Of a DNA stretch of 7,210 nucleotides, positions 1 to 7,210 are shown one piece after another (position 1 is the stretch's first letter; each line of letters starts with the position of its first letter). Source of the DNA: a virus. Lineage: Duplodnaviria; Heunggongvirae; Uroviricota; Caudoviricetes. Position numbers and translations under genes: made by a program. Where the stretch lies: the IMG/VR virus record IMGVR_UViG_2778261667_000004, positions 1-7,210 of that record. One strand, written 5' to 3'. The notes below the pieces were generated by a model that was given only the letters and a program-made list of their open reading frames with translations, did not search any database and was not told the origin of the DNA.

Positions 1-567
1 TTCTTGCACCGTCTGATAGAGCGTCATCTCTTCAGCATTGTGCCGTATAAAATCTGCTTTCCCGCCTATTTTTCCATCAGCATGAACAGGCACCAACCAG
101 GGGTGCTTGAGGCGAACTTCAATCGGTGCTGCATGTTGATGGTGCCACTTACACAACGGGAGGACGTATTTATGGGCATCTTTAGCCGTTCTGCCAAATA
201 TGTGGTGGAGAGATACGACAGGGCTATACTTCCCGTGAAGATGGCAGGCAATACAGGGGAGTTTGCCTATAGCGTCCTGTATCCGGCGCTCTTCTGCTGT
301 GAGTGATCTCCCTTTTAATCCGCGTGACGTGCGCGTTTTTTTGGGGAGGGCTGACGTCGCTCTCTCTCTTCTGCGCTGTTCACTTTGCCTCGCTTTTTCA
401 AGTTTCTTTTGACGATATTCAGGCGATGCGGCTTTTTCCCTTGCGCGTTGCTGCTGGCGTTGAGCCTGCTGAAGACGTTTTGCCCTTTGCTCTTCCCGCC
501 ATTCCGGATCAGCCAGTTTTTGCATGGCTTTTTGTCTCTGTTTCTCCCAATAACTCTGTCTCTGCAT
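1..567 (-). CDS. Ref-like HNH endonuclease (P1 recombination enhancement function family), 3' end beyond window start; alternative start at 525
   Basis: Reverse-strand frame open from 567 to position 1 with no stop, so not in the ORF track. Translation: MQRQSYWEKQRQKAMQKLADPEWREEQRAKRLQQAQRQQQRAREK...GLKGRSLTAEERRIQDAIGKLPCIACHLHGKYSPVVSLHHIFGRTAKDAHKYVLPLCKWHHQHAAPIEVRLKHPWLVPVHADGKIGGKADF...TVQE. Basic, probably disordered N-terminus followed by a CxxC...HH...CxxHH zinc/HNH-type motif, matching my recollection of P1 Ref. Only weak SD-like AAGAGA upstream of ATG 567. Confidence 0.7.
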   Translation of the reverse strand, partial: MQRQSYWEKQRQKAMQKLADPEWREEQRAKRLQQAQRQQQRAREKAASPEYRQKKLEKARQSEQRRRERATSALPKKTRTSRGLKGRSLTAEERRIQDAIGKLPCIACHLHGKYSPVVSLHHIFGRTAKDAHKYVLPLCKWHHQHAAPIEVRLKHPWLVPVHADGKIGGKADFIRHNAEEMTLYQTVQE

Positions 568-685
568 GTTGGCTGTCTCTTACTTATCAGCGATTTTTTA
601 TAATTGATCATATTTGTTAGTTATTCAAAATTGATTTCTAACATAAAACATTAATATCATCACTGATAACTGTTTGGAGGACATG
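568..685. promoter_or_regulatory. Divergent AT-rich control region between Ref-like gene and rightward operon; inverted repeat TGTTAG(615-620)-N17-CTAACA(638-643); candidate -35 TTGATT (631-636)
   Basis: Non-coding AT-rich stretch between two divergently oriented starts. Inverted repeat and TTGATTT/TCTAACATA words are shared with 4767-4788. The -10 is ambiguous (TAATAT 652-657 at 15 bp spacing, or TATCAT 655-660 at 18 bp). Confidence 0.3.
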
Positions 686-838
686 ATGCTTATAGCTTTA
701 AGTGCGATCCACCAGCCATCTGTGAATGAGATCGGTCTGTTCTATGTGCTGTTTTTCGGGGCGTTGGCGCTACTTGAGCTTGGTATTGAGCTTTTTGCCG
801 TGCTGATGTTTTGCGTCACGATGCTGGGGAAATTTTGA
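686..838 (+). CDS. Small hydrophobic (membrane) protein, about 50 aa, first gene of rightward operon; not in ORF track
   Basis: GGAGG at 676-680, then ATGATG (683/686). Translation: MLIALSAIHQPSVNEIGLFYVLFFGALALLELGIELFAVLMFCVTMLGKF. Stop TGA 836-838 overlaps ATG 838 of the next gene (TGATG). Hydrophobic stretch long enough for 1-2 TM helices. Confidence 0.45.
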   Translation: MLIALSAIHQPSVNEIGLFYVLFFGALALLELGIELFAVLMFCVTMLGKF

Positions 839-1461
839 TGGTGAAACGTGTTTTGAAAATTTACATCGCGGGGCCGATGACTGGTTATCCAGAGTACAAC
901 CGCGCGGCGTTTAATGCGAAAGCGAGCGAGTTGATGGCTGAAGGGCATATCGTTCTGAATCCGGCGGTATTACCTGGTGGCCTTTGTCAGAGTGAATACA
1001 TGGATATTTGCCTGGCAATGGTGCGTTCTGCTGATGCTATCTATCTGCTTAAGGGCTGGGAATCGTCCTCAGGAGCACGAGCAGAACATGACCTGGCTGA
1101 AAAACTGAGGCTTACGGTAATTTATGAATCGCCATCTGACAGAGATTGCAGAATGGCAGCGCATATTTACCGTGAACTGGTCAATGCGTTGTGTGATGTT
1201 GCTATTGAATGTCACGGCACGGATCAGCTTCGCGCTCGCTTAAGCAATACCCTTTCCAGCTACCTGTCTTTAGCTGAAGGATACAACCTCCGGCAGCGGA
1301 GAATGGTCAAATTAATCACGCGTTTATCTCAATCCCTGGCAAATGCCGAACCAACTAATCCGCTACCTAATGACGCAATGAATTATCTGAAGTCATGCGG
1401 CGTTGTTTCTGAAGATGCAGTTCGTTTTGTGGAGTTTATGTCTCAGAGGATGTCGGCGTGA
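838..1461 (+). CDS. DUF4406-family protein (nucleoside 2-deoxyribosyltransferase-like fold) with about 100-aa C-terminal extension of unknown function
   Basis: N-terminal KIYIAGPMTGYPEYNRAAFNAKASELMAEGHIVLNPAVL...AIYLLKGWESSSGARAEHDLA...VIYES matches the DUF4406/NDT-like signature as I recall it. GGGGAA about 7 nt upstream of ATG 838. The track's TTG 811 start would overlap the upstream small ORF, so ATG 838 is preferred. Confidence 0.8.
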   Translation: MVKRVLKIYIAGPMTGYPEYNRAAFNAKASELMAEGHIVLNPAVLPGGLCQSEYMDICLAMVRSADAIYLLKGWESSSGARAEHDLAEKLRLTVIYESPSDRDCRMAAHIYRELVNALCDVAIECHGTDQLRARLSNTLSSYLSLAEGYNLRQRRMVKLITRLSQSLANAEPTNPLPNDAMNYLKSCGVVSEDAVRFVEFMSQRMSA

Positions 1462-1775
1462 GCTGGCGGGGATGGGGAAGGGCAGAAATCATGATACTCC
1501 GCCAGTGCGCCGGGACTATGACGGTCGAGAGTATCGGGAAGCTGATCGGTCGTACCGGTGATGCCGTCAGGACTAAAGCGCGGGAGCTGAGAATCAGCAT
1601 GATTCTGAAAGGTGACTTTCACCAGTCAGCCAAATACCGGCAGAGCGATATAGAGCTGGCGCGGCAGCTTCATCAGTGTGGCGTTCCCCGCCGTGAGATC
1701 GCAGAAAAACTCGAAATGCCCCTGGGCATGATTAATCAGTACGTTTATTTCGAAAGGAGAGTGCATGAAGTCTGA
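1458..1775 (+). CDS. GcrA-like / tandem helix-turn-helix DNA-binding protein
   Basis: GTG start in a GTGA overlap with the upstream stop; AGAGGA 8 nt upstream. MSW...IGKLIGRTGDAVRTKARELRIS resembles the GcrA N-terminal HTH; second HTH-like segment DIELARQLHQCGVPRREIAEKLEMPLGMINQY. Confidence 0.65.
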   Translation: MSWRGWGRAEIMILRQCAGTMTVESIGKLIGRTGDAVRTKARELRISMILKGDFHQSAKYRQSDIELARQLHQCGVPRREIAEKLEMPLGMINQYVYFERRVHEV

Positions 1776-2202
1776 AGGTTTAACGCCAGAGCAACTGGCG
1801 GCGGAGAATGCGGCATTGCGTGAAGTAGTTGAACGCATGATAAATCAATTTGCAATGAGCGGTATTTCTCCAGAAGAGAAGTCAATCAATCCCGCAGCGT
1901 CGCTCATGTTTGATGCTAAATCAGCATTGTCTATGCCTGCAACTGACGCTTTCCTGGCTGAAGTTCGTGCTGAGGCACGCAACGAGGGGATTAACTATAC
2001 CGCAAGCCGTCTTGCTGCTGCTTTTAACCACGGATTTATCAATAAGTCTTTACGTGAAGTTTTCGACGTTACGCGCATGATTCTGTCAGCAAAAGAAGAG
2101 TTGGCTAATGAACCGCACCCGATTGATGGCCTGTCCGGTGAATATGCGGAGAAATCCCTGGAAGAATGGGCAGAACAGATTCGCAAAGGAGGTGATAAGT
2201 GA
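1765..2202 (+). CDS. Ea22-like protein, short paralog carrying only the coiled-coil plus PATDAFLAEVRA module
   Basis: AGGAGA SD then ATG 1765. Contains LAAENAALREVVERM and SMPATDAFLAEVRAEARNEGI, the same modules as in 2618-3322 and 6665-7210. Confidence 0.75.
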   Translation: MKSEGLTPEQLAAENAALREVVERMINQFAMSGISPEEKSINPAASLMFDAKSALSMPATDAFLAEVRAEARNEGINYTASRLAAAFNHGFINKSLREVFDVTRMILSAKEELANEPHPIDGLSGEYAEKSLEEWAEQIRKGGDK

Positions 2203-2609
2203 AGAAGATGATTTTTGTGGCGGCATTGGTGGCCATTACCCAACAGGCACAGGCTTCAGCAGTTATTGTGGCATCTACCGCCGCGACAACGGCTGCTGTA
2301 GCTGCTGCGAACTCTGCGAATATCGCAAACCAACAGGCACAGCGTGCTGCCAATGCATCAGCCGGTGTTCAACCAATTACCATTAAGGCCAGTAAGCAAA
2401 ATCTGGGGTTCATAACGTGCGGCAAGCGTTCTTATGAAGCTGTAGGCTCTCTGGGATGTACGGTATATGGCGATAGTGAGAGTAGAGAAATTCCATGGAA
2501 AACGTGGCCCGGATACGTTCTCGGCTCGAAGCTCCCGGCCAGCTATGAAGTAAACGCCGTATCGTTTGATCACTATAACGGCGTGGCAACTGTCTATTTT
2601 GCATATTGA
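2199..2609 (+). CDS. Secreted/periplasmic protein of unknown function (signal peptide, Ala/Thr/Asn-rich linker, two-Cys C-terminal domain)
   Basis: AGGAGGT SD then GTG 2199 in a GTGA overlap. N-terminus MKKMIFVAALVAITQQAQA|SAV is a textbook Sec signal with AxA cleavage site. Low-complexity linker, then globular C-terminus with Cys-x13-Cys. No lipobox. Confidence 0.7.
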   Translation: MKKMIFVAALVAITQQAQASAVIVASTAATTAAVAAANSANIANQQAQRAANASAGVQPITIKASKQNLGFITCGKRSYEAVGSLGCTVYGDSESREIPWKTWPGYVLGSKLPASYEVNAVSFDHYNGVATVYFAY

Positions 2610-2617
2610 GGCTCCGC

Positions 2618-3322
2618 ATGAAATTCTCCAAATTTTCTGAGTTGGTGAATCGTATTTTGTCCAACAACCACAGCCATCATAGCGATATGGATGTGACGAT
2701 CGTTGTTCATTCGCCTGGCAGCATTGGTTCAACACCCTCAGTTGAGGTTCAGTCAATTCACGCTGGTTTTGATTGGGATTCCGGGAAAGTGCTGATTTTC
2801 CCAGCACAGCCACTGACCACGCTAACACCAGAACAGATTACTGATATTACTGATAGTGTGCGCAAAGGTCAGTCCTGGCACGCATATCAGGAATACAAGA
2901 AGCATAAAGAGCAGTTGGAAAAATTGTCGATTGAACTTGATGCCGCAAAACAGCGCGTTGCAGAGCTGGAGAGCAATCGAGCGGCGCTGGCGGCGGAGAA
3001 TGCAGGGCTAAAGGCGATATGTGATGACCGTCGCAGGCTCATCATGAATGGGGTGCAGATGGGTTATATCAAGGTGCCAACAGCGGAAACAGATCCAGAC
3101 CTTGAGACAATACGTATTGCTATATCACCACAAAAGCCCATTCCAGCCACCGATGCTTTCTTGGCTGAAGTGCGGGCGGAGGCGTTTAACGACCTTTGCG
3201 CGGCGTTTGTCATGGACGCGAGGGGAGTAGGACTGGATGATGACGAGCTAGTGACGCTTAAAGATGCGACAGGTGCGCTGCTGCATTGTGCAGAACAGCT
3301 TAGGGAAGGGGGCAGTCAGTGA
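2618..3322 (+). CDS. Ea22-like protein (Ead/Ea22 family), full-length paralog with distinct N-terminal domain
   Basis: GAGG SD then ATG 2618 (track TTG 2606 would overlap the upstream stop). Coiled-coil NRAALAAENAGLKAICDD and PIPATDAFLAEVRAEAFNDL shared with the other two Ea22-like genes; unique N-terminal domain (DVTIVVHSPGSIGSTPSVEVQSIHAGFDWDSGKVLIFP). Confidence 0.8.
   Translation: MKFSKFSELVNRILSNNHSHHSDMDVTIVVHSPGSIGSTPSVEVQSIHAGFDWDSGKVLIFPAQPLTTLTPEQITDITDSVRKGQSWHAYQEYKKHKEQLEKLSIELDAAKQRVAELESNRAALAAENAGLKAICDDRRRLIMNGVQMGYIKVPTAETDPDLETIRIAISPQKPIPATDAFLAEVRAEAFNDLCAAFVMDARGVGLDDDELVTLKDATGALLHCAEQLREGGSQ
2981..3002 (+). repeat. 22-bp direct repeat (GCGGCGCTGGCGGCGGAGAATG), identical copy at 6968-6989, 16-bp core also at 1797-1815
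   Basis: Exact string match read from the sequence; encodes the AALAAEN coiled-coil segment of the Ea22-like paralogs. Confidence 0.85.
3143..3180 (+). repeat. About 38-bp near-identical direct repeat (PATDAFLAEVRA-coding), partner at 7118-7156, more diverged copy at 1936-1977
   Basis: CCAGCCACCGATGCTTTCTTGGCTGAAGTGCGGGCGGA versus CCAGCCACCGATGCTTTTCTGGCTGAAGTACGGGCGCA; a handful of mismatches by eye. Confidence 0.8.
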
Positions 3323-3618
3323 ATATCGACACCACGATAACGATCGACACGGCTCTCAACACAGGTTTGGCCTTGCTCGGTTGGGTTTACATCATGTTCA
3401 GTGCAGTACGGTGGGTGAAATCTGTTTTTCTAAAGCAGTGGGATAAACTCCGCGAAAAATCACGCCGCCAACAGGCCGTAGATGAATTTTGCGATGCATT
3501 TTCTTTGGAATGCATGGAGCCAGGTAGCACCATCCGCATCGCAACGAAGGAGGACTTGATAATTATGATGTATCGACAGGAGAAGGCAAATGACAGAACA
3601 GACGATGACAAATCGTGA
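3319..3618 (+). CDS. Small single-pass membrane protein, unknown function
   Basis: GTG start inside the junction GGGGGCAGTCAGTGA (3308-3322), overlapping the upstream stop. One predicted TM segment (TALNTGLALLGWVYIMFSAV). Confidence 0.5.
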   Translation: MNIDTTITIDTALNTGLALLGWVYIMFSAVRWVKSVFLKQWDKLREKSRRQQAVDEFCDAFSLECMEPGSTIRIATKEDLIIMMYRQEKANDRTDDDKS

Positions 3619-3814
3619 ACTTGTTGATGCCGCGATTGAACTTGCTGGCGATTTTTATTCCATGATGGGTTACGAGCATCGACCTGGTTTTAAGTATTGG
3701 GAGTCACCGCATCCGCAAGAACGACAGGTGTTTGAAATGGCCTGCCGTGCTTTTGAGGTTATTCGCGGCTCTGATGTGATGGATGCCGTTGCCGACTTGG
3801 AGGATGAAGAGTGA
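3590..3814 (+). CDS. Small acidic protein, unknown function (74 aa)
   Basis: AGGAGAAGG SD immediately upstream of ATG 3590; 29-nt overlap with the upstream gene; acidic composition with DLEDEE tail. Confidence 0.55.
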   Translation: MTEQTMTNRELVDAAIELAGDFYSMMGYEHRPGFKYWESPHPQERQVFEMACRAFEVIRGSDVMDAVADLEDEE

Positions 3815-4041
3815 GCATCATTAAAGAAATGCCGGTAGAACGTGATGAATATGGCTGCTGGACACATCCTGAATATGAAAAATTCTGTGATGGTAGAGAA
3901 CTTATTTCAACGGAAGAGTTTGACACCTGGATGAAGGAAAAGAATCTTCAGTGGACTATTCGCAGTATGGATGAAGATGATTTTAATCTGGGCGCAGATG
4001 GTCCGGTTTGTATCTGGCTGCGGGAGAAGGTTGCCGCATGA
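3811..4041 (+). CDS. Small acidic protein, unknown function (76 aa)
   Basis: GTG 3811 in a GTGA overlap with the upstream stop; its stop overlaps the phosphatase ATG (ATGA at 4038-4041). Two Cys pairs (GCW...FCDG; GPVCIW). Confidence 0.55.
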
Positions 4042-4730
4042 CCCAGGCGCTGCATGAAGTGAATTTATATAGCCGTATTGATGGTTCAGGCTACAGAAAC
4101 ATATGGGTTGTTGGTGATTTGCACGGTTGCTACACCCTGCTTATGAATAAACTCCATCGTGTGGATTTTGACCCGACACAGGATTTACTGATATCGGTTG
4201 GCGACCTTATCGATCGCGGCACAGAAAATGTTGAATGCCTGGAGCTATTGCAGATGCCCTGGTTTCGGTCGGTTATGGGAAACCACGAGCGATTAATGAT
4301 CGATGCGTTAAGTCCCTCTGGCAACGTGAATAACTGGCTAATGAATGGCGGTCAGTGGTTCTTTATGCTGGATAGTGATAAGGAAGTTTTAGCCGGGGCG
4401 CTGGTGGAGCTGGTTAGACGACTGCCTTATATCATAGAGCTGAACACAGGGCAGGAGACTATTGTCATTGCTCATGCTGACTATCCGGATAGAGAGTATC
4501 AGTTTGGCAAGGATGTGTCGCTTTTCAATGTCATCTGGTCGCGAGACCGTGTTAGTGACTCGATAGATGGCATCGGTGAAGAAATCACAGGCGCAGATCG
4601 CTTTATCTTTGGACACACACCGGTACGAAGACCAAAAGCATTCTGGAATCAGCACTACATAGACACAGGCGCGGTTTTTTGCGGAAATCTGACGCTAATA
4701 CAGGTGAAGGGAGGGCAGCTTAAAGTCTGA
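4038..4730 (+). CDS. PPP-family Ser/Thr protein phosphatase, PrpA/PrpB / lambda-phosphatase (ApaH-related) type
   Basis: Canonical metallophosphoesterase motifs in order: GDLHGC (GDxHG), GDLIDRG (GDxxDRG), GNHE, plus later His residues. Length and layout resemble E. coli PrpA as I recall it. GGAGAAGG SD before ATG 4038; track TTG 4008 rejected. Confidence 0.92.
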
Positions 4731-4756
4731 TCAAACCATTTATGCACTCAAAAATT

Positions 4757-4795
4757 CGTTAGAACATTGATTTTAGTTTTCTAACATATTATTTT
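4757..4795 (+). promoter_or_regulatory. Candidate sigma70 promoter (TTGATT 4767-4772, N17, TATTTT 4790-4795) overlapped by inverted repeat GTTAGAA(4758-4764)-N14-TTCTAAC(4779-4785)
   Basis: 98-bp AT-rich intergenic gap after the phosphatase stop. Hexamers match consensus 4/6 and 4/6 at 17-bp spacing. Perfect 7-bp inverted repeat spans the -35 and spacer. Confidence 0.35.
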
Positions 4796-4828
4796 ACCGA
4801 TCGGAACAAAACAGAGTCGGTATGCATT

Positions 4829-5824
4829 ATGAGTGCAATAATCACCCCATATGTCGTAAATGAAACTGGTGTGGCTGTCTTTCCTGTAGATAAGCCCACC
4901 AGCAATTACATCGGCGCAGGACGCCGTTTCATTATCTCTCCACTTCCGCGTGAACAGGCGGAAAACACGCCAGATGGCGTAGTGGATCTGAATTATTCGC
5001 TGGTTGCCAACCAGTCTCTGAAACCATTTTTTCAAAGCGAGCGCGTATTTAACGCATTAGGCGGTGAAGATTCGCTTGTTCATTGGGTAAGTTCCAATAT
5101 CCACGATTGCCAGGCGCACGATAAGCGCGATTGCAGCCACCAGCTAACCACCCATTTCTATAACGGTTCTGCCGTTCGTCTGTGCTGGAAGCATGATGCG
5201 GAATACATGATGAAGGGATACGACAAGCTGGAAGACCAACTGTCACTGAATCGCGCCAACTGGATTATGAACTGGGCTGCCAGCGAGTTAAAACTTCCGC
5301 CAGATCGCGATCTGAGCATGGTTGAACTCACCTTTTGGGCCATTCGCCGGAATCTTAAAGACGAACTGCCTGATGAAGCTGGTCGCATTGCATTTTGTCA
5401 GCCAAAAACTGAAATCCCTACCGGCACCCTGAAAGAGTCGGATATTACCTGGGAGCATAGTACCCGCGAGCTGGTGGATATTTCCGCAGAGCAGATCGTC
5501 AATCTGTCCGTCGATGAAGATTCTGGCCTCCTATATATGCGCCGTCCAAAAACCTTACTCGGAAAAAGCCAGGCTTATCTCCGGTTTGTGGTGTCTCGCC
5601 CATGTGTAGGCTGCGGCGGCAAGGTTAATCACCCGTTCATGTACCGTGCCCGCTCATTAAACGAACACGACCGCTGGGCTGTTCCTCTTTGCGATGACTG
5701 CGCCAGAAGCGCAGAAAACGATGTCCGGGCATGGGAAAAAGCACATGGAATACGCCTTTACGTAGCAGCTAACCAGCTTTTCGACTTCGCCATCGAGCGC
5801 GGAGTGATCACGTTCAATAACTGA
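4829..5824 (+). CDS. DUF968-like prophage protein with C-terminal Cys-rich (CxxC...NEH...CxxC) Ref/HNH-like zinc motif
   Basis: 331-aa ORF after the promoter-like region. C-terminus RPCVGCGGKVNHPFMYRARSLNEHDRWAVPLCDDCARS parallels the PCIAC...HH...PLC motif of the Ref-like gene. Overall resemblance to enterobacterial prophage DUF968 proteins is from memory. Weak SD. Confidence 0.7.
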   Translation: MSAIITPYVVNETGVAVFPVDKPTSNYIGAGRRFIISPLPREQAENTPDGVVDLNYSLVANQSLKPFFQSERVFNALGGEDSLVHWVSSNIHDCQAHDKRDCSHQLTTHFYNGSAVRLCWKHDAEYMMKGYDKLEDQLSLNRANWIMNWAASELKLPPDRDLSMVELTFWAIRRNLKDELPDEAGRIAFCQPKTEIPTGTLKESDITWEHSTRELVDISAEQIVNLSVDEDSGLLYMRRPKTLLGKSQAYLRFVVSRPCVGCGGKVNHPFMYRARSLNEHDRWAVPLCDDCARSAENDVRAWEKAHGIRLYVAANQLFDFAIERGVITFNN

Positions 5825-5840
5825 TGGAGTGGATCAAAAA

Positions 5841-6419
5841 ATGAAAGAACGCGGGATGATTTTTAACGATGAAATGGTCCGGGCAATTCTTGGCGGGAAT
5901 AAAACACAGACTCGCAGGATTGTTGAAGAAAAATTCTATGGACGGGCAGTGGCCGCAGAGTTGCTTGCCAAGCATTGTCCATATGGTCAACCGGGCGATC
6001 GTATTTGGGTTCGCGAAACCTACCGGGTACATGGCAAAGCGACGGACGTCGCAACGCTGGTTTATCGCGCAAGCGTGCGTAACTCCTGGACAGAACAAAC
6101 GCACCGGGTTCCGGTCGAGGTTTGTAATAAACCAGTATCAGAAAAGTGGACGCCATCAATTCACATGCCGCGCTGGGCATCGCGCATTTTGCTGGAAATT
6201 ACCGACGTGCGTGTGGAACGGCTGCATGACATGAGCGAGGCAGATGCTAAAGCAGAAGGCGCAACTCCGGCGACGTACAAGATTACGCCACCTGAAGCTG
6301 TTTATCGCGTTGGTTTTGGTGATATCTGGCGCAGTATTTACGGGCAGGATAACTGGCTATCTAACCCGTTGGTATGGGTAATAGAGTTTAAGCGTATTCA
6401 GGGGGCAACCAGTGAGTGA
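5841..6419 (+). CDS. ASCH-domain (PUA-like fold) protein
   Basis: MIFNDEMVRAILGGNKTQTRR matches the ASCH signature (compare E. coli YqfB DDILAGRKTITIR), followed by GDRIWVRETYRV and C-terminal VWVIEFKRI (YqfB ends FYVIEFK). Start ambiguous: GTG 5829, ATG 5841 or ATG 5856. Confidence 0.75.
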   Translation: MKERGMIFNDEMVRAILGGNKTQTRRIVEEKFYGRAVAAELLAKHCPYGQPGDRIWVRETYRVHGKATDVATLVYRASVRNSWTEQTHRVPVEVCNKPVSEKWTPSIHMPRWASRILLEITDVRVERLHDMSEADAKAEGATPATYKITPPEAVYRVGFGDIWRSIYGQDNWLSNPLVWVIEFKRIQGATSE

Positions 6420-6678
6420 GTCAAAATGCCAAATTAATGGCAACAAGATAGAACCGTGCGCGGCGTTGACGCAATCCCTGGAGCATGACGCTGAATACAC
6501 GACGCGAAAAGGTCTGCTGAAATACAAAATCTATAACCATGCATTAATTCATTCACAAGACCTGATCATGCTGCGGTCTGGTGAATTTTCTAAATCACCG
6601 ATTCGAGTTTCATTTTGCCCGTTCTGTGGTGAAAGTCTGAAAACGTGGGAAGCGGAGGCAACCAGTGAGCAAAATTAA
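6412..6678 (+). CDS. Small Cys-containing protein (possible zinc ribbon), unknown function
   Basis: GTG 6412 inside junction GGGGGCAACCAGTGAGTGA, overlapping the ASCH stop. Cys-x9-Cys near N-terminus and CPFC near C-terminus. Confidence 0.5.
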   Translation: MSESKCQINGNKIEPCAALTQSLEHDAEYTTRKGLLKYKIYNHALIHSQDLIMLRSGEFSKSPIRVSFCPFCGESLKTWEAEATSEQN

Positions 6679-7210
6679 CTATCAAGAACTGCGCGAGGCG
6701 GCGGAACAGGCAACGCAAGATGAATGGGTAGCATATATTTTGCCGGGTCATAACGGCATTTATCCTGCGCGCACGTCTGAGGGTAGGCATTGCGGATACT
6801 TTATTGACTGGCCTGGCATTGATGGACAAAGGAATGCTGGTGCTAATGCCCGTTATATCGCGGCTATCCCACCAAAAGTTGCGCTGGCACTCCTGGGCGA
6901 AATTAAGCGCTTGGAAGACACAAATATTGATGCTATGTGCCGAATTGCAGAACTGGAGGCCTGTCGCGCGGCGCTGGCGGCGGAGAATGAGCTGGCTCGT
7001 AAAGCAGTTCAGGCATTCTGCGATGTTGTTGGCGACAACACCGAGGTTATCGCTGAGGAGATTGGGAGAGATGGTGTTCTGGCTATTTTGGAGGCCATGA
7101 AGGCAACAGGAAATATGCCAGCCACCGATGCTTTTCTGGCTGAAGTACGGGCGCAGGGGGTGGATGCTGCTATAGAAGCTGCAAAAAATCTGGTGGTCCA
7201 AGAATATGAG
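6665..7210 (+). CDS. Ea22-like protein (Ead/Ea22 family), N-terminal part; continues beyond window end
   Basis: Open frame from GTG 6665 to the window end with no stop (absent from ORF track). GGAGG 8 nt upstream. Translation VSKINYQELREAAEQATQDEWVAYILPGHNGIYPARTSEGRHCGYFIDWPG...ACRAALAAENELARKAVQAFCD...NMPATDAFLAEVRAQGVDAAIEAAKN is typical of the family as I recall it. Confidence 0.8.
   Translation, partial: MSKINYQELREAAEQATQDEWVAYILPGHNGIYPARTSEGRHCGYFIDWPGIDGQRNAGANARYIAAIPPKVALALLGEIKRLEDTNIDAMCRIAELEACRAALAAENELARKAVQAFCDVVGDNTEVIAEEIGRDGVLAILEAMKATGNMPATDAFLAEVRAQGVDAAIEAAKNLVVQEYE
6968..6989 (+). repeat. 22-bp direct repeat, partner of 2981-3002
   Basis: Exact string match read from the sequence. 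Confidence 0.85.
7118..7156 (+). repeat. Near-identical direct repeat, partner of 3143-3180
   Basis: See partner entry. Confidence 0.8.

Follow-up and report, generated by a model that had tools for sequence, protein, structure and literature searches.

How do several genes of one phage operon come to share short stretches of nearly identical DNA, and what happens to the DNA that lies between such repeats? The question is raised by a stretch of 7,210 nucleotides (nt) of tailed-phage DNA, positions 1 to 7,210 of IMG/VR record IMGVR_UViG_2778261667_000004, which we call the window and which is 100% identical, end to end, to the whole draft contig PTSF01000043.1 of GCA_002965845.1. The element that carries it is, by its matches and gene order, a D6-like (P1-family) phage-plasmid. 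Three of its genes, here named A, B and C, contain the repeats (Table 1). The original prediction described them as Ea22-like paralogs with different N-terminal domains on one shared C-terminal module, and saw in the repeats substrates for deletion or exchange of the roughly 4 kilobases (kb) between them. We consider it likely that they are EaE/Oad2-like genes built of three variable slots and reassorted by homology-driven exchange in the short linkers between the slots; this is the fullest explanation of the observations that we can offer.

Shared linkers and unrelated modules in genes A, B and C

Comparison of the window with itself confirmed the near-identical direct DNA repeats in the family genes. 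There is an exact direct repeat of 22 base pairs (bp) at 2981-3002 and 6968-6989, and exact 17-bp direct repeats start at 1795 and 2987 and at 3143 and 7118. Between genes B and C the similarity extends over 45 nt at 87% (2958-3002 and 6945-6989, spacing 3987 nt) and over 43 nt at 88% (3140-3182 and 7115-7157, spacing 3975 nt); the calculated chance expectation in 7.2 kb is about 1.5e-6 pairs of exact 22-mers. An additional repeat at the gene ends, not listed in the original prediction, was found at 2167-2203 and 3287-3323 (73%), where it codes for AEQ(I/L)R(K/E)GG and for a stop that shares bases with the following start codon. All these repeats are direct and lie in coding sequence; a long inverted repeat was not found in the window.

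All three genes were confirmed on the + strand, the third running off the contig end. The repeats are the codons of linkers, namely (A)LAAEN within a coiled coil and PATDAFLAEVRA; alignment confirmed that A, B and C all carry both, and LAAEN and PATDAFLAEVRA are the sole invariant stretches in the three-way protein alignment. The second, referred to below as the PATDAF linker, is internal, since three unrelated C-terminal modules come after it, and the segments from LAAEN to PATDAF are mutually unrelated as well, giving three middle modules. Thus the shared linkers of the predicted architecture stand, whereas the shared C-terminal module does not, and gene A has no N-terminal domain.

Gene A consists of a truncated N-terminal module N1 of 10 residues, LAAEN, the middle module Mg, PATDAFLAEVRA, the C-terminal module Ca and the tail EQIRKGGDK; as its LAAEN begins at residue 11, there is essentially no N-terminal domain. 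Gene B is composed of N2, AALAAEN, Md, PATDAFLAEVRA, Cc and the tail EQLREGGSQ, and its closest database match is 85-86% identical. Gene C has an EaD/Ea22 N-domain (N3), AALAAEN, Ma, PATDAFLAEVRA and the start of Cd. The contig ends 57 nt past the PATDAF linker of gene C, within the C module (7153-7210), and an assembly break at this point would fit more copies of the Cd module elsewhere in the same genome.

Set against the other elements compared, gene A has lost its N domain to an in-frame deletion of 57 nt. It removes 19 codons of N1, with the junction between CAACTGGCAGAG and GCGCTGGCGGCGGAG (window 1788-1811), and this junction lies at a partial internal copy of the ALAAEN linker (QLAERN). 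The deletion is common to contig L021 and to an Escherichia marmotae protein that is 99% identical to gene A; an undeleted N1-Mg-Ca form exists (P0122), and full N1-Mg-Ca and N6-Mg-Ca forms occur elsewhere. Gene A belongs to PHROGs 614/368/492. For its middle module Mg, blastn against 5,426 complete E. coli genomes and a search of the GTDB species representatives for exact 41-mers both found nothing; matches to it were found at the protein level only.

In an AlphaFold2 (AF2) model of gene B, made with a 44-sequence alignment, a long helix of residues 87-147 is predicted with confidence (10-residue block means of the predicted local distance difference test, pLDDT, of 74-92 from residue 91) and holds AALAAEN at 122-128. 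The PATDAF linker opens a predicted helix, 178-203, which is the start of a two-helix C-terminal module.

Family assignment

Gene C matched the Pfam family Ead_Ea22 (PF13935) with 72.4 bits over residues 2-122 (gathering cut-off 27 bits), whereas genes A and B did not match PF13935 even at E<=10 and gave only sub-threshold coiled-coil noise from Pfam. Of the three supposed Ea22-like paralogs, therefore, only gene C can keep that description. In BLASTP searches only residues 1-21 of lambda Ea22 (MSxINxQxLREAAEQA) could be aligned with gene C and nothing significant was found with genes A and B; the Ea22 C-terminal domain (residues 102-182), whose dimeric fold has been solved, was unmatched in all three. 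An NCBIfam scan of ten window proteins including A, B and C gave zero matches.

The three proteins have more in common with P22 EaE and with Oad2, which is gp27 of HK446. A coiled coil ending in (A)L(A/V)(A/V)EN is present in A, B and C (LAAEN), Oad2 (SLAAEN) and EaE (ALVVEN); the motif PATDAFLAE(V/M)RA is exact in A, B and C and also occurs in Oad2 and EaE; and tails of the Q(L/I)RKGG type close A and B, the contig ending before that of gene C. Along HK446 gp27 one reads SLAAENAG, TPATDAFLAEVRAQ and the terminal DQLRKGGNQ, and along P22 EaE AALVVEN, TPATDAFLAEMRAQ, the C module Cb and the terminal AAQLRKGVQS. When a profile of the gene B family (44 relatives) was compared by hhalign, it matched Oad2 at 98.3% (E 1.7e-14) and EaE at 98.4% (E 8e-15), both from the coiled coil to the C-terminus. 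The shared motifs together with the 98% profile homology indicate a scaffold of the EaE type, and the scaffold common to A, B and C is thus that of P22 EaE and HK446 Oad2. EaE/Oad2-like is a better family name than Ea22-like, and gene C is an EaD/Ea22 N-domain fused to an EaE scaffold. This corrects the annotation of proteins that are called Ea22-like and share just the EaE scaffold.

Fusion of EaD/Ea22 to Oad2/EaE-type proteins has already been mentioned (bioRxiv 10.64898/2026.07.10.737580), and the mosaic organisation of Ea22 has been published for variants of Shiga toxin (Stx) phages (PMC10834534). The string PATDAFLAEVRA was in no searchable paper. Neither the description with three linkers and three slots nor the link of 'Ea22-like' plasmid genes to EaE/Oad2 was in any searchable paper, the D6 genome paper (Gilcrease and Casjens 2018) lying outside the search. 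It has thus been published before that Ea22 genes are mosaic and that these regions are highly modular; what is new is the exact module combinations found here.

Breakpoints in related elements

We aligned 19 D6-like loci, one P1-like plasmid and phage phiV10 to the window and located the ends of homology blocks of at least 150 nt. The eight linker intervals make up 6.6% of the window and contain 96 of the 182 block ends, or 19 of the 38 distinct end clusters; the binomial P for the clusters is about 4e-13, a significance that is inflated by the relatedness of the loci. The original prediction had proposed that related elements be compared for breakpoints in the repeats, and such breakpoints were found.

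At linker 1 of gene A (1799-1801) homology is lost in 18/18 D6-like relatives that differ in gene A, and it resumes at linker 2 (1932-1948); L021 has the window's gene A, and its alignment runs straight through linker 1. Further blocks end at 2167 and 2190-2192 in tail A, at 2978-2984 and 3002-3013 in linker 1 of gene B and at 3143, 3172 and 3183 in linker 2 of gene B, start at 3287-3289, 3309 and 3317 in tail B, and end at 6941-6989 and 7146-7165 in linkers 1 and 2 of gene C. Most of the remaining ends lie at gene boundaries (2613, 5827, 6417/6433 and 6654-6673); those in the variable segment 5829-6678 are at 5827, 5915, 6153, 6417 and 6433.

Reassortment of modules

From the window, 17 relative elements and phiV10 we took every open reading frame (ORF) with both motifs and typed it by clustering each of the three slots. 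Among the resulting 36 family genes there were 7 N, 7 M and about 10 C types, which were joined in 29 N-M-C combinations. The four-gamete test was violated at both junctions, in 5 cases at N/M and in 9 cases at M/C, and the presence of all four pairings of two types across two slots requires recombination. In L013 we observed a chimera that joins window 2613-3002 (the N module of B), 6941-7157 (the middle of C) and 1932-2190 (the C module of A), followed by the region downstream of B; every join sits within a linker. Plasmids differ in whether the middle module Ma belongs to the first, the second or the third of their family genes, so the exchange is not only allelic. The clustering, the chimeras and the reassortment together support the predicted domain shuffling within the operon, with the repeats as its site.

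Three contigs (L020, L021 and L022) encode a gene B protein identical to that of the window. L021 is 99.3% identical across 1-4004, whereas L020 and L022, one of them an assembled 90-kb contig and the other a Logan read-set assembly, are 99.1% identical over 1-1799 and 99.3% over 1936-4004 and differ from the window in the middle module of gene A. The replacement covers about 1788-1975, a tract that begins shortly before LAAEN and stops where PATDAFLAEVRAE ends. The difference is a recent clean cassette replacement bounded by shared sequence.

Several other observations were made on the modules. Product p46 of phiV10, an epsilon15-like podovirus (L019 2851-3426), is an N6-Md-Ca family member, and its middle and C modules have 94% DNA identity to window genes B and A, so the module pool spans unrelated virion types. 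On plasmid L010 Ma occurs twice (4328-4509 and 9696-9897), as direct repeats of about 180-200 bp some 5.4 kb apart; these are far better deletion substrates than the 22-mers of the window, yet the interval between them is kept. We also considered L016 as a simple deletion between the linker 1 copies of A and B, and rejected this because its C module differs too (N1-Md-C4).

Silent sites of the linkers

The original prediction had allowed that the shared segments might be conserved only as protein, with silent sites diverged. This holds for the PATDAF copy of gene A, in which 4/12 codons are identical to those of B or C, about the level of chance, whereas the linkers of B and C are conserved as DNA, with 9/12 PATDAF codons and 7/7 AALAAEN codons identical. 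When copies with at least one unrelated flank were compared, their codons agreed in 75% of cases for PATDAF and in 83% for AALAAEN, where codon usage would predict 34-35%, and the shared codons include non-preferred ones. The PATDAF codons of Oad2 agree with the plasmid consensus at 36/36 positions, though every module differs; those of EaE from Salmonella phage P22 agree at 26/36. Judged from these codons, the ultimate constraint on the linkers is at the protein level; within an E. coli-centred pool, however, the linkers are shared as DNA, and this makes them recombination substrates.

The interval between genes B and C

The segment 3317-5827 is present and syntenic in 19/19 of the D6-like relatives fetched; 3996-5827, with the phosphatase and DUF968 genes, is 90-97% identical in all of them and 3317-4004 about 80-99%. 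In an evenly spaced sample of 899 plasmid hits, the phosphatase and DUF968 were listed in 8/8 D6-like rows. We saw no variant that lacks the B-C interval among the 19 D6-like relatives and the sampled plasmid rows, and the chimeras with the N module of B and the middle of C (L013, L014) keep 3317-5827 downstream, so they are replacements rather than deletions. The variable content adjoins the family genes instead, at 1800-3317 and 5827-6680. The predicted deletion of the bracketed stretch of about 4 kb is thus not supported, and this stretch is not variable cargo.

Movement of a gene between repeats was seen elsewhere. The block 1932-3002 (the Ca tail, gene 2199-2609 and N2) lies at the upstream Ea site in most relatives, L002, L003, L005, L007 and L008 among them, whereas L006 has it at the downstream site. 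One gene between linkers, if not more, has therefore changed its linker-bounded position. The predicted exchange of cargo therefore applies to this block but not to 3317-5827. The 136-amino-acid product of gene 2199-2609 would have, as read from its sequence, a hydrophobic, signal-peptide-like N-terminus and an alanine-rich stretch; the gene, a member of PHROG 8805, travels with its flanking half-genes as a single block between the two Ea sites. Among the downstream Ea22-like genes of some relatives there is also a PAPS-reductase-family gene (L004 9882-10754, L007 9358-10230, L020 12828-13835), which is absent from the window.

Proposed mechanism of exchange

Each family gene has a variable N module, linker 1, (A)ALAAEN, in the long coiled-coil helix, a variable middle module, linker 2, PATDAFLAEVRA, at the start of the C-terminal helical module, a variable C module, and linker 3, AEQLRKGGxQ, whose stop overlaps the next start. 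In the pool of E. coli and Salmonella phages the linkers are nearly identical as DNA and the modules between them unalignable, so that, in the exchange that we favour, homologous recombination between co-resident elements or paralogous positions would resolve in the linkers and reassort the modules, and a whole gene lying between two linkers would occasionally move as well. The candidate enzymes would be RecA, with the neighbouring Ref function as a helper, or recombinases of the Red/Erf type from prophages with the same family; we infer that the exchange is homology-driven, via RecA and/or a phage recombinase.

Several points weigh against this reading. If illegitimate joins arose at random and selection kept those that give folded proteins, the same clustering at linkers would result, so the breakpoints alone do not prove that homology drives the exchange. 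The breakpoint and codon counts treat related sequences as independent, and P values are overstated. Efficient recombination by the RecBCD pathway needs a minimum of roughly 23-27 bp of identity, and the perfect identities in the window are just 17-22 bp, at or below this minimum; such marginal identity fits rare exchange and the absence of observed deletions. Deletions between B and C may have gone unseen because recombination works poorly on 17-22 bp of perfect identity; alternatively, the element may need the interval.

The alternative offered by the original prediction, that the direct B/C repeats serve to delete or exchange the approximately 4 kb between them and so explain variable moron content, appears improbable. 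The repeats are indeed real and direct, the linker-bounded block 1932-3002 did move in L006, and short-repeat deletions of 57 nt and 81 nt are known in the lineage, but the synteny of 3317-5827 in all relatives, the sampled plasmid rows, the 'cargo' still downstream in both chimeras and the position of the variable genes outside this segment all speak against it. The main rival is that the linkers are kept for the protein only, with random illegitimate joins surviving in frame at permissive points and DNA identity as a by-product. It would account for motifs kept where codons differ, as in EaE (26/36 nt) and gene A (4/12 codons against B and C), and for the position of AALAAEN within a confidently predicted helix, and microhomology-only deletions do occur in the window contig. 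It is weakened by the codon data, as the same codon recurs, non-preferred ones included, more than twice as often as expected beside unrelated flanks and the Oad2 linker agrees at 36/36 nt; moreover, the replacement in L020 and L022 ends within shared identity and not at arbitrary points. We therefore regard it as rather unlikely, although somewhat less so than the deletion of the B-C interval.

It is also conceivable that the linkers are selected as DNA recombination signals, a Chi-like octamer in linker 1 and the adjacent Ref gene targeting the exchange. The octamer GCTGGCGG occurs in linker 1 of both B and C, canonical Chi, GCTGGTGG, is found in 3/35 alleles (those with AALVAEN), GCTG[GC][TC]GG occurs 11 times in the window against 1.1 expected from shuffles, and for Enterobacteriaceae GCTGGCGG has been inferred on statistical grounds to be a variant of Chi (PMC8022716). 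Yet GCG-CTG-GCG-GCG is the commonest encoding of A-L-A-A in these genomes, linkers 2 and 3 have no Chi-like octamer, and we found no activity data for GCTGGCGG in E. coli. Chi richness is reportedly general in P1-type genomes, as Lobocka is said to have described in 2004, and the window-wide excess would then not be specific to the linkers. As default A-L-A-A codons explain the octamer, we retained it as a driver of exchange only as a very remote alternative. A bolder form of the idea, that the linkers are maintained as DNA recombination 'splice sites' (linker 1 also being Chi-like) and that the family genes form a combinatorial library for new specificities, is speculative, and we give it little credence. 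If it were true, the two to four genes per phage-plasmid and the prophage copies would reshuffle N, middle and C modules and so yield new specificities for anti-defence or host targeting. Such a system would be the equivalent, based on recombination and serving counter-defence, of the exchange of tail-fibre cassettes.

Five canonical Chi sites (GCTGGTGG) are present in the window, at 709-716 (-), 4400-4407 (+), 4896-4903 (-), 5137-5144 (-) and 5470-5477 (+). Degenerate sites start at 450, 1290, 1462, 2986, 3854 and 6973; those at 2986 and 6973 are inside linker 1 of B and C.

Possible function and significance

Oad2 (OLD anti-defence 2) binds the P2 OLD defence nuclease and blocks its activation; a homologue 54% identical to it does not inhibit OLD, which indicates narrow specificity, and the same source relates Oad2 to P22 EaE and mentions that it is at times fused to EaD/Ea22 (bioRxiv 10.64898/2026.07.10.737580). 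In lambda and Stx phages, the Ea22 proteins form coiled-coil tetramers, their C-terminal domains are swappable, and their phenotype is pro-lysogenic (PMC7093339, PMC10834534). By analogy, A, B and C are most likely oligomeric scaffolds that present variable modules to host or defence targets, and shuffling would diversify these targets. There are reasons for caution here too. The similarity to Oad2 is 28% over 159 amino acids and resides mostly in the linkers and the coiled coil; no N, M or C module of the window resembles any of Oad2's, so no specific target can be claimed for A, B or C. The AF2 model of gene B has a mean pLDDT of 60.7, with low confidence beyond the coiled coil. The reported role of lambda Ea22 is pro-lysogenic rather than anti-defence (PMC7093339), and an anti-defence function of A, B and C would be an extrapolation from Oad2.

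Among the early genes of enterobacterial temperate phages that await an explanation, those of the EaE/Ea22 type rank with the commonest, and the family searches matched >2,600 and >3,000 protein clusters at 90% identity. The locus shows unusually clearly how the family is built, with three swappable slots and three short linkers, and the exchange spans several types of phage, namely D6-like and P1-like phage-plasmids, phiV10, HK446 and P22. Given the narrow specificity of Oad2, the slot structure offers an experimental handle on which slot sets the target.

The element and its operon

The top phage match of the window is Escherichia phage D6, a P1-family plasmid prophage (87% identity across 63% of the window). 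The top plasmid matches are E. coli and Salmonella plasmids of about 90-95 kb, non-mobilizable, with 88-91% identity and the window's gene order; their alignments to the window are always split into 4-8 pieces. An origin from a lambdoid prophage was considered and rejected on the backbone synteny (D6-type gene order).

The + strand genes from DUF4406 to gene B form a chain with overlapping stops and starts, and those from DUF4752 to gene C follow on the same strand. In a consensus scan the sole + strand promoter-like site was at 631-660, ahead of these genes, and no internal terminator was convincing, which fits a single operon; the window would thus carry one long + strand accessory operon. 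Block 9-1799 could be aligned in 19/19 D6-like relatives. In all D6-like relatives the Ref-like gene (P1 recombination enhancement function) lies beside the operon and is read away from it, and the genes for P22 EaE and HK446 Oad2 likewise adjoin recombination genes (Erf/Abc). The DUF968 part of the predicted DUF968-ASCH module is present, whereas the ASCH label is weak. Compared with all relatives, the 99.3%-identical L021 among them, ORF 3811-4041 has an 81-nt in-frame deletion (27 codons, window 3996-4004); the 9-bp direct repeat AGATGGTCC flanks the deletion, and the product has 76 amino acids in the window and 103 elsewhere.

Table 1. Features of the 7,210-nt window and their coordinates.
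Feature	Position	Strand	Remark
Ref-like RecA-dependent nuclease gene, cut by contig start	1-567	-	PF16786 RecA_dep_nuc; annotated in relatives as 'Ref family recombination enhancement nuclease'
Conserved operon start: small ORF, DUF4406 gene (838-1461), DNA-binding/D5-like regulator gene (1458-1775)	683-1775	+	
Gene A (145 amino acids)	1765-2202	+	EaE/Oad2-like
Linker 1, copy A, CTGGCGGCGGAGAATGC (LAAEN)	1795-1811	+	identical to 2987-3003 over 17 bp
Linker 2, copy A, PATDAFLAEVRA	1936-1971	+	most silent-site-diverged copy
Linker 3 (tail), copy A, WAEQIRKGGDK	2167-2203	+	stop overlaps next start
Gene for 136-amino-acid protein	2199-2609	+	PHROG 8805, full length
Gene B (234 amino acids)	2618-3322	+	EaE/Oad2-like
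Linker 1, copy B, AELESNRAALAAEN	2958-3002	+	holds 22-bp repeat and, at 2986-2993, the Chi-like octamer GCTGGCGG
Linker 2, copy B, PATDAFLAEVRA	3143-3178	+	
Linker 3 (tail), copy B	3287-3323	+	
Conserved backbone between B and C repeats	3319-5824	+	aligns in all 19 D6-like relatives
DUF4752 gene	3319-3618	+	
Two small genes	3590-3814 and 3811-4041	+	
Ppp-type metallophosphatase gene	4038-4730	+	
DUF968/PdcB-like gene	4829-5824	+	
Variable segment 5' of gene C	5829-6678	+	present, partial or replaced in relatives
Weakly ASCH-like gene	5829/5841-6419	+	Pfam ASCH E=0.046, below cut-off
Gene for 88-amino-acid protein	6412-6678	+	
Gene C, 182 codons, cut by contig end	6665-7210	+	EaD/Ea22 N-domain on EaE-type scaffold
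Linker 1, copy C	6945-6989	+	holds 22-bp repeat 6968-6989 and GCTGGCGG at 6973-6980
Linker 2, copy C, PATDAFLAEVRA	7118-7153	+	

Comparison with known systems

The closest counterparts are the Oad2/EaE genes, which have the same three linkers as the scaffold of A, B and C and also lie in early accessory regions adjoining recombination genes; the Cb module of P22 EaE is common in D6-like plasmids. The window differs in that it has three copies, one of them with an EaD/Ea22 N-domain, and in that they are on a phage-plasmid rather than a lambdoid or P22-like phage. The mosaic described for Ea22, a short N domain, a coiled coil and a swappable C domain (PMC10834534), fits the window genes as well, but the PATDAF linker is absent from lambda Ea22 and the C-terminal domain of lambda Ea22 is absent from the window genes. 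Phage D6 itself (NC_050154, orf89-orf104) has Ref, DUF4406, the regulator, EaE/Ea22-like, DUF4752, Ppp, DUF968/PdcB and Ea22-like genes in this order, and its aligned backbone blocks are 84-91% identical to the window; its orf91, however, is N1-Mb-Ce, and it is without gene 2199-2609, the N2 gene and the ASCH-like gene.

Shufflons, invertible cassettes and diversity-generating retroelements differ from this locus, which has no dedicated recombinase or reverse transcriptase (no site-specific recombinase or reverse transcriptase was found among the window's genes) and, in place of inverted repeats, direct coding ones. The better comparison is with the mosaicism of temperate phages, for which Susskind and Botstein are said to have formulated a module theory of evolution. 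Lambdoid phages are known for gene-boundary sequences and for relaxed homologous recombination by phage recombinases. As in that mosaicism, short conserved sequences here flank unrelated modules, junctions fall in them, and the modules reassort freely. Unlike there, the linkers are intragenic and split one protein into three slots, and the same linkers recur two to four times per genome, which makes non-allelic exchange possible. With these differences, the locus is ordinary phage mosaicism, unusually clean.

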